This document shows, piece after piece, positions 17,339 through 54,142 of a DNA stretch of 64,000 nucleotides (positions within the stretch are counted from its first letter, which is position 1; the number at the start of each line of letters is the position of its first letter). The notes under the pieces are model-generated. The model saw nothing but the letters and a program-made list of their open reading frames with translations. It was not told the DNA's origin and searched no databases. The DNA is taken from contig CACZFH010000008.1 of assembly GCA_902780395.1 (NCBI GenBank), positions 20,278 through 84,277 on the forward strand, in the 5' to 3' direction. The translations under genes were made by a program, and so were the position numbers. The DNA comes from an uncultured Erysipelotrichaceae bacterium (GTDB taxonomy: Bacteria > Bacillota_I > Bacilli_A > RF39 > UBA660).

Positions 17339-20300
17339 ATGAAAAATCTTAAATACATATTATTTATAACAATAATAGGTATGATTTTTAGTGTAAAAAA
17401 TGTTTTTGCCTTCGATATTAATAATTATCGTTATAGAGGATTATGTGGAAATTATGAAGTAGCTAGATTCAGAGAAGATGGAGGAATAGATACTATTAGT
17501 TGCCATAATACTTATGAGCAAGCTAAAACTGCTATGATTCAAAATGGTGAAAACGGAACTGCTATTTTAGTAAAAATAGGGGGAGTAACCAAGATTATTG
17601 ATGCCAATGTAGCTTTATTAGATTTAAGTGTTAATCCAGAAACATTAACTTATTTCTATACCAATAAAGAATTAACTGGCTCTGCCTATACTTATATGGA
17701 TACTGGTTCCTTATATGGAGGAGTAGATGGAGCTCATATAGAATCTGCTTATTCAAATACCTATGGAACTTGGGTTGCTAAAGTAAAAATAGGAAACTTT
17801 ACTGGTTGGATTAGACAATCCGCTTATGAAATAGTACCAATTACTTGGGTAAAGTCTCTTAGTTCATATACCATAACTAATAATGATATACGTCATAATT
17901 ATGTAGCTAAAATTCAAAACTATTATAATGGCTCTAGTGGTAGAACAATTGGACCTAAACCAGCTATATTACCAGTAGGAACCTATTATAGTTATGATGG
18001 ACATTATTTTTATCAAGACATAGAAACTTTAATAAAAGATTATAAAGCTGGAAATTACAATCATTCTGTAAATAAAGATAATCCTTACTACAATTATTAT
18101 ATGTATTTATCAAATCATACTAAAACATCCTACTCAAGTATTAATATTGATGAATATATAAGGAATAACCTAGGATATAAAATGAATGTCTATGGAAATG
18201 CTGCATCTTCTAAAACCTCTAGATTATATGGTTCTGGAACATTCTTCTATTATGCTCAAGAAAAAAATGGAGTAAATGCCATTCTATCATTAAGCTTAAG
18301 TAGAAATGAAACAGGCAATGGTACAAGCAGTTTATCTATTAATAAAAATAATGGATTTGGATTGAATGCAGTAGACTCAAATCCTACTCAAGCAGCTAAT
18401 TGGTATCCAACATTTGCTAGTAGTATTTTAGGATATTCCTCTAAGTGGATTACTTATGGATATGCTCATCCTAGAGATTGGCGTTACTTTGGACCACAAT
18501 TTGGTGATAAATGGATAGGAATGAATGTAAAATATGCATCTGATACTTATTGGTCTGAAAAAATGGCAGCCAATTACTATAGTTTAGATAAAGCTTTTGG
18601 TCTCCAAGATTATAATTACTATCAATTAGGAGTGGTAAAAGGACCAACTAATGCTTATCTACAACCATCTACTTCCGCGAAGTTTATCTATTCTTATCCA
18701 GAAAAAGAAGATGCTTTAGTCATTATTGGTGAAGTAATGGTAAATAATCAAAAATGGTATAAAGTTGTAAGTGATATTAATTTAGATAGTAATGGAAATG
18801 AAATATCATCAGGAGACTATAATTGGAATAGTGAAGTCTATGTTTTAGCGTCACATGTAGAAAAAATTAATACTCCTAAAAATGGATATCAAAATCCAAA
18901 TCAAGTATATCAATATGCTGATTCAAAATATACCTATGATTTATATATTGAAAATGCCGAATTAAAACCAAAAGTTGCTATCACAACTAAAAATACTCAA
19001 TATTACTATGATAGTTCTCTATCATCAGCAACCGGAAAAACACTATTAAAAGATCGCTACGTAATGGTATTTACTACTGCCTATGAAAATGGTATGCCAG
19101 TAGCTTACTTAGTAACTAGTGATTATTTCAAAGATCAAAAAGAATGGGTAAGTGCAGATTCTATTAAGTTCACATCTACTAACTATGGAAAAGTAAGTGT
19201 AACTGTATCTGGAAATCAATATACTTGGGTGAACTATAATACAGTAGATGAAAAATACTCTCTAATTAGTGGTTTATATACTTATACTTATGTACCAGTC
19301 TTAGAACAAATTACAACAGGTGGAAATACTTGGTATAAAGTACCAGTAAGTCTAACAAATAATGATAATGTTTATGGATATACACTAGCATCTGCTCCAG
19401 GGGTATCTATCACAACAGCTACTCCAGTAATCATTAATCATAAACCAACTATCAGTGCCAAAGATCAAACTCTAGAAGAACAAGCTAATTTTGATCCAAA
19501 ACAAGGAGTAGAGGCTAATGACCCAGAAGATGGTAATATTACCAACAAAATAGAAGTAATTGAAAATACTGTTAATACCAAAATACCAGGTACTTATAAA
19601 GTAACTTATAAAGTAGCTGATAGTATAGAACAAGTTGTAACTAAAACAATAACAGTAACAGTAAAAGAGAATAAAGCCCCTACAATTACTGCTTATGATA
19701 AAACAATAACAGTAGGTGATAAATATAATCCAAAAGAAAATGTAACAGCTAAAGATGAAGAAGATGGTGATTTAACTAATAAAATAGTGATTAAAGAGAA
19801 TACTGTAAAAGAAGATATATCTGGAACTTATAAAGTAATCTATGAAGTAACTGATTCTAAAAATAAAATGACCACCAAAGAAATCAAAGTTACAGTAAAA
19901 GAAAAAGTTGAAATAAACGAAGAAGATATAGATTTAGAAGAATTATTAGAAAAACAAGAAGATGGAGAATTCTACTTAGAAAGCCTAGATTGGGATAATA
20001 ATATTAAAAAATATACTATGAGTGGTTATTGTATTATCCTTAATCAAAATAATACTAATAAAGAATATGCATTAGTATTCATTAATAAAAATACCGAAGA
20101 AGTATATGTATCAGAAATAAGTAGTTGGCAAAACAATGTTCCTTATGATTTAGGAAGTTCAAATGGTAATAGCTATTCAGATTCGTGGTTTAAAGGTGAA
20201 ATTGACTTTTCAGATATTCCTAATGGAGATTATGAAATCTATATGATTGCTGCTACGGATAATAATTATACAATTCAAATAGTAGATAATTTCTTCAACC

Positions 20301-50331: not shown

Positions 50332-51564
50332 ATGGAATTTCAAGAATTAACAGAACAAGAATATCGATCATTTTGGGAAAATCATCCTCTGAAAACCTTT
50401 TTGTCTGCCACCGAAATAGCCAAACTAAGAGAAAAGTCAGGATGGAATACTGCCTATGTAGGAGTAAAAAAAGGTAAAAAAGTGATTGCGGCTACCATGC
50501 TATTAAGTCATAAAAGACACTTCAATCAATATGAATTCTATTCTCCAAGAGGTTTTCTAATGGATTTTCATGACAATGACTTATTAGAATTTTTTACTCA
50601 AGAATTAAAAAAATATATAAAAGAGAAAAAAGGCTATATTCTAAGAATAGATCCATATGTAATTTATAAAGAAAGAGACATTGATGGAAATATAGTGGAA
50701 GGTGGAGAAGATAATTCAAAAGTAGTCGAAAAACTATTAGAATTAGGATATCATAAAGTGCCAACTGAACAAAAAGAACAAGTAGGATGGATGTTTTCTC
50801 TAAATTTAGAAGGAAAAACAGAAGAACAAATTCTAAAAGAAATGAAGCCAAATACTAGAAATACCATTCGCAAAGCAGAAAAATTTGGTATTACTGTAAA
50901 AGAAATAACATATGAAGAACTTGATAGATTTCAAAATATCATGGAAGAAACTTCAAAAAGAAAAGGCTTTTCCAATAGAAAACTATCATATTATCAAGAT
51001 ATGTATCAATTATTTCATGATAAAGAAGAAGTTAAATTTTTCATAACAGAATTAAATCTAAAGAATTATATAGAAAGATTAGAAAAAGAAAAAGAAGAAA
51101 AGGAAGAAAAGAAAAAATCACTAAATGATGCTAAGTACAATGATGGAATCAGAAAGAATCTAGAAAATGAAATAGAAACTTTAGAGAGAAGAATAAATGA
51201 TTCTAAAAACATTATCTCAGAAAAGAAGACAGATATTATAACCTTATCAGGTTCTATGTTTATGTTAATAAAACCAGAAGTAATATACTTATCAAGTGGA
51301 AATTATGAAGAATTTATGAAGTTTAATTCCCAATATTTAATTCAATGGGAATTAATAAAATATGGAATAGAGAATGGATTTAAAAAGCATAATTTCTATG
51401 GAATACCTGAAAATATCAATGAACATCCCAAAGATTATGGTATTTATGAATTTAAAAGAGGTTTTAATGGCTATGTAGAAGAACTAATTGGAGAATTTGA
51501 ATTACCAATAAATATTTTTTATAAAGTATTTCAGTTAATTCATAAAATTAAAGGAGGAAAATAA
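50332..51564 (+). CDS. FemABX/MurM peptidoglycan interpeptide-bridge aminoacyltransferase
   Basis: YSPRGF, RIDP, coiled-coil insert, YLSSG, HNFYGI, FKRGFNG.VEELIGEF. Confidence 0.9.
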   Translation: MEFQELTEQEYRSFWENHPLKTFLSATEIAKLREKSGWNTAYVGVKKGKKVIAATMLLSHKRHFNQYEFYSPRGFLMDFHDNDLLEFFTQELKKYIKEKKGYILRIDPYVIYKERDIDGNIVEGGEDNSKVVEKLLELGYHKVPTEQKEQVGWMFSLNLEGKTEEQILKEMKPNTRNTIRKAEKFGITVKEITYEELDRFQNIMEETSKRKGFSNRKLSYYQDMYQLFHDKEEVKFFITELNLKNYIERLEKEKEEKEEKKKSLNDAKYNDGIRKNLENEIETLERRINDSKNIISEKKTDIITLSGSMFMLIKPEVIYLSSGNYEEFMKFNSQYLIQWELIKYGIENGFKKHNFYGIPENINEHPKDYGIYEFKRGFNGYVEELIGEFELPINIFYKVFQLIHKIKGGK

Positions 51565-51816
51565 ATGCATAAAACATATTATCCTAAAGGAGTTTGTTCC
51601 ACTAAAATAGATTTTGATATTGAAGATAATAAGATTCATAATTTAGTAGTAACAAATGGTTGCAATGGAAATTTAAAAGGGATAGCAGCCTTAGTAGAAG
51701 GACAAGATATCAAAGAAGTAGAAGCTAGGCTAAAAGGAATTAAATGTGGTTTTAAGAATACATCTTGTCCAGATCAGATTGCTAAAGCCCTAGAAGAAGT
51801 TATAGAAAATCAATAA
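51565..51816 (+). CDS. TSCPD-domain protein (TIGR03905-like)
   Basis: GVCS, GCNGNL, GIKCG, TSCPDQ. Confidence 0.88.
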   Translation: MHKTYYPKGVCSTKIDFDIEDNKIHNLVVTNGCNGNLKGIAALVEGQDIKEVEARLKGIKCGFKNTSCPDQIAKALEEVIENQ

Positions 51817-51849
51817 TGACTAATAATAGCTTATATAAGTAAATTTTAT

Positions 51850-51878
51850 TTGCATTTTTATTAAGAATAGTATATTCT
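51850..51878 (+). promoter_or_regulatory. Probable sigma-A promoter of the uracil permease-upp leader
   Basis: TTGCAT-17bp-TATTCT. Confidence 0.55.
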
Positions 51879-51898
51879 CATATAAAGGGCGTGAAAAT

Positions 51899-51994
51899 AT
51901 GAGTAAGAAGGAAAAGCTTAATCTTATGATGATTCATAAAGAAATGGTTTCTTTCTTATTCATTTTTTTATCACTTACTATCTTATCAATTTAG
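51899..51994 (+). CDS. Putative 31-aa leader peptide MSKKEKLNLMMIHKEMVSFLFIFLSLTILSI
   Basis: ATG preceded by aaagggcgtga; pyrimidine-rich second half; TAG overlaps the terminator stem; below the ORF-track cutoff. Confidence 0.45.
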   Translation: MSKKEKLNLMMIHKEMVSFLFIFLSLTILSI

Positions 51995-52027
51995 AAGGGG
52001 GTTCTATTGGACATTCCTTCTTTTTTT
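51994..52027 (+). terminator. Attenuator terminator upstream of uracil permease
   Basis: GAAGGGGGUUC-UAUU-GGACAUUCCUUC plus U7. Confidence 0.75.
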
Positions 52028-52064
52028 GTAAAGAAAGGCCCTAAAAAGAGAGGAGAGAGAGAAT

Positions 52065-53504
52065 ATGAATCGTCGTAAAATGGCATACGACATCGATGAA
52101 ATGCCACCAATGAGAGAGTCTATAATTTTAGCATTTCAACACTTATTTGCAATGTTTGGAGCCACTATCTTAGTTCCAATCCTTGTAAATGCCGCTGCTG
52201 GAAAAGAAGTATTAACCATCCCAGTAGCCCTTGTTTCTTCTGGTATAGGTACATTAATCTACATACTATGTACCAAAGGAAAATCACCAGTATATTTGGG
52301 AAGTTCCTTCGCCTTTATAGTACCAGTAGCAGCTGCCTATACCAAAGCCGGAATTGCTGGTGCTATGACAGGTATTATGGCAGTAGGATTAATTTACATC
52401 ATTGTGGCAATCATCATTAAGTTTGTAGGAAAAGATTGGCTAGAAAAACTATTACCACCTGTAGTAATAGGACCAATGATTATGATTATTGGTTTAGGAT
52501 TAGCACCATCTGCCATAAGTCAAATTGGTTTAGCAAGTGGTACTGATTTAGATTGGAAAGTAATACTAGTAGCCGCTATATCATTTTTAACAACAGCAAT
52601 TGTTATGACCAAAGCCAAAGGCTTCTTCAAAATTATTCCCTTCTTAATAGGAATAATTATTGGATATATTGTAGCAGTATGTTTAGGAATGATTGATTTC
52701 AAACCTGTTGCAGAAGCTAGTTGGTTTAGTATTCCTAAGTTTAAAATATTATTCAAAGATTATCAATTAAACTTTTCAGCATTAATGACTATCGCACCAA
52801 TTGCTTTAGTAACAATGTGTGAACACATAGGAGATCATACTTCACTAAGTAACATTATAGGAAGAGATTTAATAAAAGAACCAGGTCTAGATAGAACTCT
52901 ATTAGGAGATGGTATTGCTACCTTAGTAGCTGGATTACTAGGAGGACCTGCCAATACAACTTATGGAGAAAATACTTCTGTAGTTGGAATGACAAAAGTA
53001 GCTAGTGTAAAAGTAATAGGACTTGCTGCTATATTTGCTATTATCATTGGTTTCCTAGGCAAATTTACTGCCCTAGTATCAACAATTCCAAATGCCGTAT
53101 TAGGAGGAGTTTCTTTATTACTATATGGATTTATAGCAGTAAATGGATTAAAAGTATTAATAAAAAATCAAGTTAACTTTGAAGATCCTAAAAACGTAAT
53201 AGTAGCTTCATCTATGTTAGTACTAGGACTAGGAGGAGCAGCAGTATCTATCGTAAGTGGAGACTTATCACTAACCATCTCTGGAATGAGTTTAGCAGCT
53301 ATTATTGGTATCCTTTTATGTAGTTTATTACCAAAAGAAGAAAAACCAGTAGCAACTCTAATAACAGAAGATGCAAGAACTACGAAACAAGATATGAATA
53401 AATTAAAAAAAGATATTAAAGATGAATTAACTGTAGAGTTAAAAGAAGATATATTAAAAGCAATCAAAGATGAAATGAATAAACCAAATAAAAAGAGAAA
53501 ATAA
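52065..53504 (+). CDS. uraA: Uracil permease (NCS2 family, UraA/PyrP)
   Basis: QHLFAMFGATILVP, YLGSSFAF, EHIGD, NTTYGEN; adjacent to upp. Confidence 0.92.
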   Translation: MNRRKMAYDIDEMPPMRESIILAFQHLFAMFGATILVPILVNAAAGKEVLTIPVALVSSGIGTLIYILCTKGKSPVYLGSSFAFIVPVAAAYTKAGIAGAMTGIMAVGLIYIIVAIIIKFVGKDWLEKLLPPVVIGPMIMIIGLGLAPSAISQIGLASGTDLDWKVILVAAISFLTTAIVMTKAKGFFKIIPFLIGIIIGYIVAVCLGMIDFKPVAEASWFSIPKFKILFKDYQLNFSALMTIAPIALVTMCEHIGDHTSLSNIIGRDLIKEPGLDRTLLGDGIATLVAGLLGGPANTTYGENTSVVGMTKVASVKVIGLAAIFAIIIGFLGKFTALVSTIPNAVLGGVSLLLYGFIAVNGLKVLIKNQVNFEDPKNVIVASSMLVLGLGGAAVSIVSGDLSLTISGMSLAAIIGILLCSLLPKEEKPVATLITEDARTTKQDMNKLKKDIKDELTVELKEDILKAIKDEMNKPNKKRK

Positions 53505-53515
53505 GAGGAGGAACC

Positions 53516-54142
53516 ATGGAAGTAGTAGAATTAAATCATCCCTTAATTGAACATAAATTATCTATACTAAGAGATGAAAAAACAGGAACTAAGGAATTTC
53601 GAGAAATAATAGGAGAAATTGCTAGTGTATTATGTTATGAAGCAATGAAGGATGTAAAATTAAAGGAAGTAGAAATTAAAACGCCACTAGAAAAAATGAA
53701 AATAGGGCAATTAGAAGAAGATAATTATGCCTTCGTCCCAATCTTAAGAGCCGGAATGGGTATGCTAGATGGAGTAATTACAGTAGTACCAAATGCCAAA
53801 ATAGGACACATAGGAATGTATCGTAATGAGAAAACATTTGAGCCAGTAAATTATTTCTTTAAAGTACCAAAAGACATTGAAAAAAGAGAAGTCTTTTTAC
53901 TAGACCCTATGTTAGCAACTGGTGGAAGTGCTTGTGATGCGATTGAATTATTGAAATCAAAAGGAGTCAAAAAGATTAACTTTCTTTGTATAATTGCTGC
54001 TCCAGAAGGTTTAAAAGTAGTAACAGAAAAACATCCAGATGTCAAAATATTCTGTGCTCATATTGATAGAGAATTAAATGAAAATAAATATATTTGTCCA
54101 GGCTTAGGAGATGCTGGAGATCGTATATATGGAACAAAATAA
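53516..54142 (+). CDS. upp: Uracil phosphoribosyltransferase
   Basis: HPLIEHKL, VPILRAG, DPMLATGGS, PGLGDAGDR. Confidence 0.97.
   Translation: MEVVELNHPLIEHKLSILRDEKTGTKEFREIIGEIASVLCYEAMKDVKLKEVEIKTPLEKMKIGQLEEDNYAFVPILRAGMGMLDGVITVVPNAKIGHIGMYRNEKTFEPVNYFFKVPKDIEKREVFLLDPMLATGGSACDAIELLKSKGVKKINFLCIIAAPEGLKVVTEKHPDVKIFCAHIDRELNENKYICPGLGDAGDRIYGTK

Follow-up and report, generated by a model that had tools for sequence, protein, structure and literature searches.

The window analysed here, a stretch of 64,000 nucleotides (positions 20,278 to 84,277 of contig CACZFH010000008.1, assembly GCA_902780395.1) from an uncultured Erysipelotrichaceae bacterium, carries a short leader ahead of two genes: one for a probable uracil permease and the other, upp, for uracil phosphoribosyltransferase. 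Our analyses indicate that this leader is very probably a translation-dependent transcription attenuator of the permease–upp operon: it holds a small open reading frame (ORF) whose stop codon runs into the first bases of an intrinsic terminator, and the same layout stands before the orthologous permease in most of the relatives compared. The full statement, that the element is a ribosome-occlusion attenuator resembling that of E. coli pyrBI and that it senses uridine triphosphate (UTP), has in our judgement about an even chance of being correct. Comparative support for the anatomy is strong; the UTP signal is plausible.

Details of the leader are given in window coordinates, and all features lie on the + strand. 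A putative promoter, read by eye, occupies 51850-51878 (−35 element TTGCAT at 51850-55, a 17-nt spacer, −10 element TATTCT at 51873-78); the match returned by a promoter scan, TTTGCA-16-TATATT at 51849-51876, overlaps it, and by eye TTGCA(T/A)-17-TATTCT is likewise present in the relatives L002 and L004. The leader Shine-Dalgarno (SD) region, AAGGGCGTGA, follows at 51885-51894, near the predicted 5′ end of the transcript. It precedes the leader ORF, MSKKEKLNLMMIHKEMVSFLFIFLSLTILSI, which spans 51899-51994 and consists of 31 codons with an ATG start and a TAG stop at 51992-51994. An earlier note on this DNA, made from the letters alone, had proposed this ORF, and both the sequence and the ORF call agree with it. 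The note had further described a purine-rich first half and a U/C-rich second half, and this too is correct: the purine fraction is 0.67 in 51899-51944, and the U/C-rich tract at 51945-51991 has a T fraction of 0.60, includes a run of seven U residues (U7, 51963-51969) and contains TTNTTT motifs, making it a candidate pause region for RNA polymerase. The peptide encoded by the ORF matches no family in Pfam or NCBIfam.

The intrinsic terminator lies at 51993-52027, with a stem formed by 51993-52004 and 52009-52021 and a T run at 52021-52027. In the minimum free energy (MFE) fold the stem has 12 bp with one bulge (−12.1 kcal/mol), and its first two bases are the A and the G of the leader TAG; the stem had been said to begin within the stop codon, which it does, and to take up only the last base of that codon, which it does not. 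Between the T run and the permease ATG at 52065 are 37 nt (52028-52064), in which the promoter scan detected no promoter-like site on the + strand. The absence of an evident promoter from this interval had been remarked on previously, together with the caution that a promoter of the permease's own would speak against attenuation; none is seen. The 191-nt leader as a whole is predicted to fold at −54.1 kcal/mol (z = −4.97), and none of 200 shuffled versions folds as well.

The comparative evidence comes from the upstream regions of the orthologous permease at 98 loci, which represent 90 distinct sequences. Among the sources named for related loci are uncultured gut and rumen Bacilli, ‘Erysipelotrichaceae’ metagenome-assembled genomes and Candidatus Coprovivens (Bacilli incertae sedis). 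Of these regions, 83 had a terminator according to a script, and leaving out the outgroup loci L018-L020 gives 80. The layout was scored where an SD-like motif stood 4-13 nt before the start of an ORF of at least 20 codons, and where the stop of this ORF fell anywhere from 12 nt before the stem to the end of the 3′ arm of the stem. The earlier note had suggested comparing the leader with those of relatives: ORF, SD and stop position are kept together in 74 of the 80 regions. By contrast, in dinucleotide shuffles of the 130 nt upstream an ORF ended at the terminator in 3.7% of cases, and never in more than 8 of 80 (200 shuffle sets). A second control, drawn from terminators of the window's own genome that have a gene start within 170 nt downstream, gave a similar figure: 16 distinct cases among 413 terminators (3.9%), one of which is rpmH. 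The feature exceeds chance. Moreover, the same layout is visible by eye in 8 of the 14 regions that the script left uncalled, the terminators of these 8 being imperfect.

The position of the stop is the most regular aspect of the ORF. Across the 74 leaders its length ranges from 23 to 63 codons (median 32); the stop begins exactly 1 nt before the stem in 36 of them, with a range of −10 to +23. Over the span of the ORF frame +0 is open in all 74, frame +1 in none (mean of 3.8 stops) and frame +2 in three (mean of 3.2 stops). Promoter and leader stay with the permease across genera whose upstream neighbour genes differ. Within its own genome the element appears only once: a DNA search for further copies returned nothing but 24-nt low-complexity matches, and an architecture scan of the other ORFs that end at terminators identified none resembling the uracil permease leader.

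Some permease loci depart from the layout. It is truly lacking in two outgroups, in two G+C-rich loci, in one locus that carries a PyrR-like loop and in two that have no leader; L065 was assigned neither to the layout nor to the exceptions. In one collected set of 80 loci a single one, L047, comes from a cultured organism, Sarcina sp. DSM 11001; it has no such leader, and no cultured model emerged. The leader upstream of the permease at L035 (G213:C69) differs: it is richer in G+C, has a strong terminator and lacks a leader ORF, and it may represent another kind of regulatory RNA. At L063 the leader ORF (42-54 codons, depending on the start chosen) reads through the hairpin and stops ∼20 nt downstream. 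One of the own-genome control cases also deserves description: at G000:C22:26167-26316 (+) an ORF of 49 codons, with Asn/Gly-rich ends and an Ile/Phe run, ends 1 nt before a terminator stem and sits 79 nt ahead of a gene for a 233-amino-acid protein. It is probably a small membrane protein and no look-alike of the uracil leader.

What appears to be conserved is the translation of the leader and not the sequence of its peptide. Leader peptides share an identity of 0.64 when their permeases are 95-100% identical over the first 300 residues; at 80-85% permease identity this has fallen to 0.25 and below that to 0.22, compared with 0.20 for shuffled peptides. The peptides begin with a basic N-terminus and turn hydrophobic in their C-terminal half, where Phe, Ile, Leu and Ser abound. 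Conservation of the peptide as a membrane protein had been named as a finding that would count against attenuation, and it is not what we see: because identity decays to the random level, readings based on a small protein or an arrest peptide are no longer leading candidates. Nor is there a preference for particular codons. In the last 20 codons frame 0 holds 211 TTY triplets, compared with 255 for frame +1 and 272 for frame +2; such triplets are not commoner in frame, so the U-richness is a property of the nucleic acid, and selection for in-frame Phe codons is ruled out.

This U-richness is concentrated towards the stop codon. In the family profile the T fraction climbs from 0.36 to 0.5-0.63 over the last 14 codons, and in the tail between the first of the helices described below (P1) and the stop it amounts to 0.49, against 0.31 in the middle of the ORF and 0.27-0.31 in neighbouring genes. 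The sequence TTNTTT, which in B. subtilis is the NusG-dependent pause motif, occurs in 64 of the 74 ORFs; there are 122 such motifs in all (71 ± 9 in shuffles), mostly 10-50 nt before the stop.

Two predicted helices would close the ribosome-binding site (RBS) of the leader. P1, seen in the MFE structure, pairs 51891-51918 with 51946-51971 over 25 bp, and in doing so joins the end of the SD, the AUG and codons 2-7 to the U/C tract, including U7; a hairpin in the same structure (51922-29 / 51934-42) forms its apex. A pairing that hides the AUG had been noticed before: it exists, and is longer than the 16 bp first claimed. The second helix, P0, appears in the MFE structure of 51884-52070. Its 5′ arm, AGGGC (51886-51890), lies within the leader SD and its 3′ arm, GCCCU (52038-52042), lies between the tail of the terminator and the SD of the permease; formation of P0 is limited to transcripts that read through. 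P0 is newly recognised here, and is described in none of the parts of the leader-peptide attenuator literature that were consulted for comparison.

The leaders have diverged so far that MAFFT, applied to 21 of them, aligned the SD, the ATG, the T-rich tract, the terminator and not much else. The alignment is too rough in the middle of the ORF for column covariation, and hence per-sequence z-scores and a duplex test were used. In the duplex test each leader's own two segments were set against pairs in which one segment was swapped for that of every other locus, a control that retains composition and generic SD/anti-SD complementarity, and that is conservative because relatives share sequence. 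The two arms of the terminator served as positive control: the own pairs had a median of −11.6 kcal/mol and the cross-locus pairs −4.7 kcal/mol, with the own pair in the top 10% in 61 of 74 leaders. For P1 (codons 2-11 with the U/C tract) the corresponding values were −10.8 and −7.1 kcal/mol and 35 of 74, and for P0 (leader SD-to-AUG with the segment after the terminator) −10.9 and −6.5 kcal/mol, with 37 of 73 in the top 10% when segment A was fixed and 40 of 73 when segment B was fixed. The fold internal to the ORF (P1) has z < −2 in 30 of the 74 leaders, and in 14 of the 17 leaders L001-L017; P0 reaches z < −2 against shuffles in 42 of 73. Compensatory pairs in P0 can be recognised by eye: GGTGCAAAA/TTTTGCACC, AGGTATATAA/TTATATACCT, and GGGC/GCCC vs GGGT/ACCC vs GGGA/TCCC. 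On these computed folds, P1 and P0 covary across the family, and both close the leader RBS.

Antiterminators behave differently. A 9-bp pairing between AAGAAGGAA (51905-13) and TTCCTTCTT (52014-22) had been put forward as one; the complementarity is present, and the role assigned to it finds no comparative backing, given that early codons paired with the 3′ arm of the terminator gave −4.3 kcal/mol (cross-locus −4.5 kcal/mol) and placed the own pair in the top 10% in just 8 of 74 leaders. A trp-like 2:3 antiterminator, in which the U/C tract would pair with the 5′ arm of the terminator, gave −3.2 kcal/mol (cross-locus −3.7 kcal/mol) and 1 of 74, a lack of covariation on which it was rejected. 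Both candidates tested in the 74 leaders are at chance, which is not proof that an RNA antiterminator is absent. The conserved anatomy, as far as folding and alignment can describe it, is an RBS closed by two helices, an ORF, and a terminator without an RNA competitor.

The genome in which the leader is found gives this anatomy a physiological setting. The assembly is a draft of 1.83 Mb (27.5% G+C, 96% complete), so that a missing match is not proof of absence. The PyrR RNA element (RF00515) has no match in it, and matches in the B. subtilis and L. lactis controls; the PyrR-binding consensus, reported absent from the leader in the earlier note, has no match in the region or in the rest of the genome. 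A genome search for pyrR, which had been recommended, returned no match to the PyrR protein (NF003549), and none of the 201 sampled family genomes exceeds the curated cut-off. Likewise not found in the own genome were orotidine monophosphate decarboxylase (pyrF, PF00215), aspartate carbamoyltransferase (pyrB, TIGR00670), cytidine triphosphate (CTP) synthase (PF06418) and Rho (TIGR00767); for each of these proteins, PyrR included, the control genomes match. A PRK-family (uridine-kinase-like) domain is present at C5:13797-14384, inside an open frame of 576 amino acids. The failure to find pyrF, pyrB and CTP synthase suggests an organism that is auxotrophic for pyrimidines and lives on salvage; it also seems to lack Rho. 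With PyrR, Rho and de novo pyrimidine synthesis all not found, the permease–upp operon is probably the main route to uridine monophosphate in this lineage. The conservation of ORF, SD and stop placement, taken with the failure to find either PyrR RNA or PyrR protein, sustains the proposal with which the earlier note began, namely a PyrR-independent attenuator of the leader-peptide type.

How might such an element work? Because the leader ORF runs up to the beginning of the terminator, a ribosome close behind the polymerase would cover the 5′ arm of the stem. With no RNA antiterminator found and with the stop fused to the stem, a ribosome on the last codons would be the only conserved antagonist of the terminator. 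There is precedent in E. coli: according to the consulted parts of PMC4824070, termination drops from ∼90% to <10% when a stop codon that lies 28 bp upstream of a terminator is brought to 5 bp from it, and the effect is gone when translation is uncoupled. It is on this precedent that we read the element as a ribosome-occlusion attenuator.

Transcription would start a few bases before the SD site, and a pioneer ribosome could load on the 31-codon leader only while the RBS was still single-stranded. If this ribosome kept close behind the polymerase it would cover the 5′ arm of the terminator, and transcription would continue into the permease; if the polymerase outran it, or if none loaded, P1 would close the AUG, the terminator hairpin would form and transcription would stop. 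Scarce UTP would slow the polymerase in the U-rich, TTNTTT-rich second half of the ORF, keeping the RBS open for longer and allowing the ribosome to catch up; the segment slowed under low UTP would be the same segment that closes the RBS. The predicted outcome is read-through at low UTP, with more uracil uptake and salvage, and termination at high UTP. UTP would be a natural signal for an operon of uracil uptake and salvage, and the low-UTP direction would be physiologically sensible. We infer all four steps (leader translation, blocking of the terminator by the ribosome, pausing in the U tract, and UTP as the signal).

More tentatively, and with somewhat less than even confidence, we propose that the element is a kinetic sensor of UTP, working in one shot and closing itself, in gut Bacilli that are pyrimidine auxotrophs and in which PyrR and Rho were not found. 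The RBS would be open until the U tract had been transcribed and P1 could form, and after read-through P0 would close it again; P0 may also protect the 5′ end of the transcript. How fast the polymerase crosses the TTNTTT-rich U tract would thereby determine whether one pioneer ribosome can load, keep up and come to rest on the stop. Evidence at the level of RNA is limited to one contig of 183 nt from a bovine gut RNA library, which matches 51893-52075 without mismatch and bridges the ORF, the terminator and the start of the permease. The rest of the four contig-only RNA data sets holds short pieces of the permease gene only, and parts left bare in them are uninformative.

Several observations weigh against these proposals. 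The bridging contig may be carry-over of DNA, and contigs show neither the ends nor the levels of transcripts. With the transcription start as predicted, only a few bases would separate the leader SD from the 5′ end. The strength of P1 is largely confined to the genus of the window (the family median is z = −1.32, and z > 0 in 10 of 74 leaders), and P0 has only 5 bp in the window itself. The compared genomes are those of relatives, so the layout counts are not independent of one another. As to UTP sensing, the U-richness arises in part from the pairing of P1 with the A/G-rich first codons and to that extent is not independent evidence; the null for TTNTTT consists of whole-ORF shuffles, so that what its enrichment shows is largely that T clusters in the 3′ half; and the U runs are modest, the longest T run being 4-7 nt in 69 of the 74 leaders and 3 nt in the other five. 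Finally, the best NCBIfam match of the permease, the uracil permease equivalog NF007995, scores 405 bits and is under the cut-off of 477.

The structural evidence for a translation-dependent attenuator fits equally well a reading that retains the anatomy and the occlusion and replaces UTP by general translation capacity or coupling (growth rate, ribosome availability, translation stress), such that the operon is transcribed only when ribosomes load fast. This is the main rival, and U-richness can be read in its favour as well, as a by-product of the pairing of P1 with A/G-rich early codons. We nonetheless think it unlikely: in the own genome the element was found only before the uracil permease–upp operon, it accompanies the permease across genera with differing upstream neighbours, its U-richness continues outside the P1 arm (0.49 vs 0.31), and a pyrimidine auxotroph plainly needs control that responds to pyrimidines. 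A sensor acting in trans, either a small RNA or some RNA-binding protein that is not PyrR, could instead bind the pyrimidine tract, P1 or the leader RBS and so set leader translation or formation of the terminator. Conservation of P1 and of the U/C tract would suit such a factor, and with PyrR missing another regulator could have taken its place. However, in the alignment no conserved primary-sequence motif is seen beyond the SD, U-richness and the terminator; the sequences of the helices covary freely, which argues against a sequence-specific binding site; and no candidate regulator gene is linked to the leader, the upstream neighbours of which vary between genera. We hold a trans-acting sensor to be quite improbable.

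The remaining alternatives fare worse. A nascent leader peptide might arrest the ribosome near the stop in response to a small molecule, in the style of TnaC or erm, and since the stop is at the base of the terminator a ribosome held there would block the hairpin; yet the identity of the peptides is random once permease identity is 85% or less, their length varies from 23 to 63 codons and no codon is preferred in frame, all of which makes arrest very doubtful. The basic N-terminus and hydrophobic C-terminal half could equally belong to a functional small hydrophobic protein, for example an accessory subunit of the permease, with the hairpin as an ordinary or leaky terminator. Against this, the amino acid sequence is not conserved and has no counterpart in Pfam or NCBIfam, the hydrophobic stretches, short as they are, are split by charged residues in many peptides, and neither the constant placement of the stop nor an RBS closed by P1 and P0 is expected of a plain small gene; we find this explanation scarcely credible. 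Much the same can be said of a metabolite-binding riboswitch of a new class. The strong structure of the window leader (z = −4.97) speaks for it, and a new RNA switch had been considered in the earlier note, but an Rfam scan of 51000-53000 at E values up to 10 gave noise only (14-19 bits vs gathering scores of 45-130), no conserved unpaired core was seen, only simple, drifting helices, and a conserved ORF, predicted to be translated, fills nearly the whole leader; the switch finds no support and is extremely improbable. A Rho-dependent reading of the pyrimidine-rich tract, prompted by the consulted part of PMC13323073, was also rejected: rho was not found and an intrinsic terminator is present.

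Downstream of the leader the permease gene occupies 52065-53504, with an SD, GAGGAG, at ∼52050-55. The product, of 479 amino acids, is an NCS2 permease (Pfam PF00860, 4.4e-96; TIGR00801, 388 bits, exceeding the cut-off of 291.8) and probably a uracil permease. The neighbouring gene supports uracil as its substrate: upp (53516-54142, 208 amino acids) is identified as uracil phosphoribosyltransferase by Pfam PF14681 (1.1e-77) and by NF001097 and TIGR01091, both above their cut-offs. In the genus of the window the permease is ∼45-50 residues longer at the C-terminus than in most family members (window 53350-53504); the Pfam domain reaches as far as residue 394, and in many relatives the alignment stops at residue ∼427-441. 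At G120:C18:3358-4782 the permease match comes in two pieces (query 4-160 and 159-430) on one contig, with open frames of 524 amino acids, which could reflect a frameshift, an insertion or an assembly error. Upstream of the leader promoter is a gene for a TSCPD-domain protein (51565-51816). No terminator was seen between this gene and the promoter (51817-51849), and read-through from upstream into the leader is therefore possible.

Pyrimidine control in Bacilli is usually taught as dependent on PyrR, and nucleotide-sensing occlusion attenuators that act via the speed of the polymerase are known mainly from enteric bacteria. A conserved ORF fused to a terminator suggests that the enteric solution has been reinvented in a Gram-positive background. 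Full-text literature searches, whose coverage leaves out most subscription journals, turned up no account of upp or uracil permease genes being controlled by a leader-peptide attenuator. If the proposal is true, it amounts to an independent Gram-positive invention of the logic of pyrBI, applied to the salvage of uracil. It would also be a natural probe of transcription–translation coupling in a clade whose polymerases are usually held to run ahead of the ribosomes; in B. subtilis transcription is reported to outrun translation (PMC13323073, in the part consulted). And it would be a compact, protein-free part of ∼180 nt, the output of which is set by the spacing of polymerase and ribosome, and which would serve as a regulatory element and as a tool for work on coupling in Firmicutes.

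Among known systems, PyrR attenuation of pyr, pyrP and upp in Bacilli (RF00515) acts on the same kind of target gene and likewise places a terminator in the 5′ leader. It differs in both its defining features, the PyrR-binding RNA and the PyrR protein, neither of which was found here; and the proposed antagonist of the terminator is a ribosome and not a protein-stabilised anti-antiterminator. An outgroup from another family, L018 (G037:C75), has a permease leader without an ORF and with a terminator. A loop ∼60-90 nt before the permease start in this leader, and ahead of the terminator, resembles, by eye, the PyrR-binding motif.

The tlrB (yxjB) and vmlR leaders of B. subtilis combine NusG-dependent pausing with a short leader peptide, and sense antibiotics through peptide-specific stalling of the ribosome and alternative RNA structures. 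Unlike these leaders, and unlike erm, the uracil leader has an unconstrained peptide and no covarying antiterminator. The upstream-ORF motifs in the consulted part of PMC8632094 concern other genes. The attenuators of trp, his, leu and phe share with the uracil leader a short leader ORF followed by an intrinsic terminator, and a helix between the start of the ORF and a segment downstream. In amino-acid attenuators, however, >20 bp separate the leader gene and the terminator, and the hairpin is thereby kept clear of a terminating ribosome (PMC4824070, consulted parts), whereas the stop of the uracil leader abuts the terminator. The uracil leader also differs from trp, his, leu and phe in having neither an in-frame cluster of regulatory codons nor a 2:3 antiterminator.

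The closest relation is with pyrBI. In E. coli and Salmonella the pyrBI attenuator, with its leader peptide pyrL, works by UTP-sensitive pausing with ribosome coupling. We know of no RBS-closing helices such as P1 and P0 described for pyrBI, where the uracil leader differs in that these helices would close its own RBS. Nor do we know of any leader-peptide attenuator in which a helix closes the leader RBS only in transcripts that read through. The two leaders have no sequence relationship, the one considered here belongs to the phylum Bacillota, and its operon serves uptake and salvage rather than biosynthesis. In pyrBI a leader gene of 135 bp contains the terminator, which goes unrepressed while UTP is normal, and pause sites keep translation coupled with transcription (PMC4824070, as far as consulted). 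The uracil leader ORF usually stops at the first bases of the stem (36 of 74 at −1) and does not run through it, the leader at L063, which reads through its hairpin, being a pyrBI-like arrangement. What the two have in common is a leader ORF and an intrinsic terminator within reach of its ribosome, a U-rich stretch before that terminator, no RNA antiterminator, a target in the pyrimidine pathway and, if our reading is right, the direction of the response: low UTP leading to read-through.

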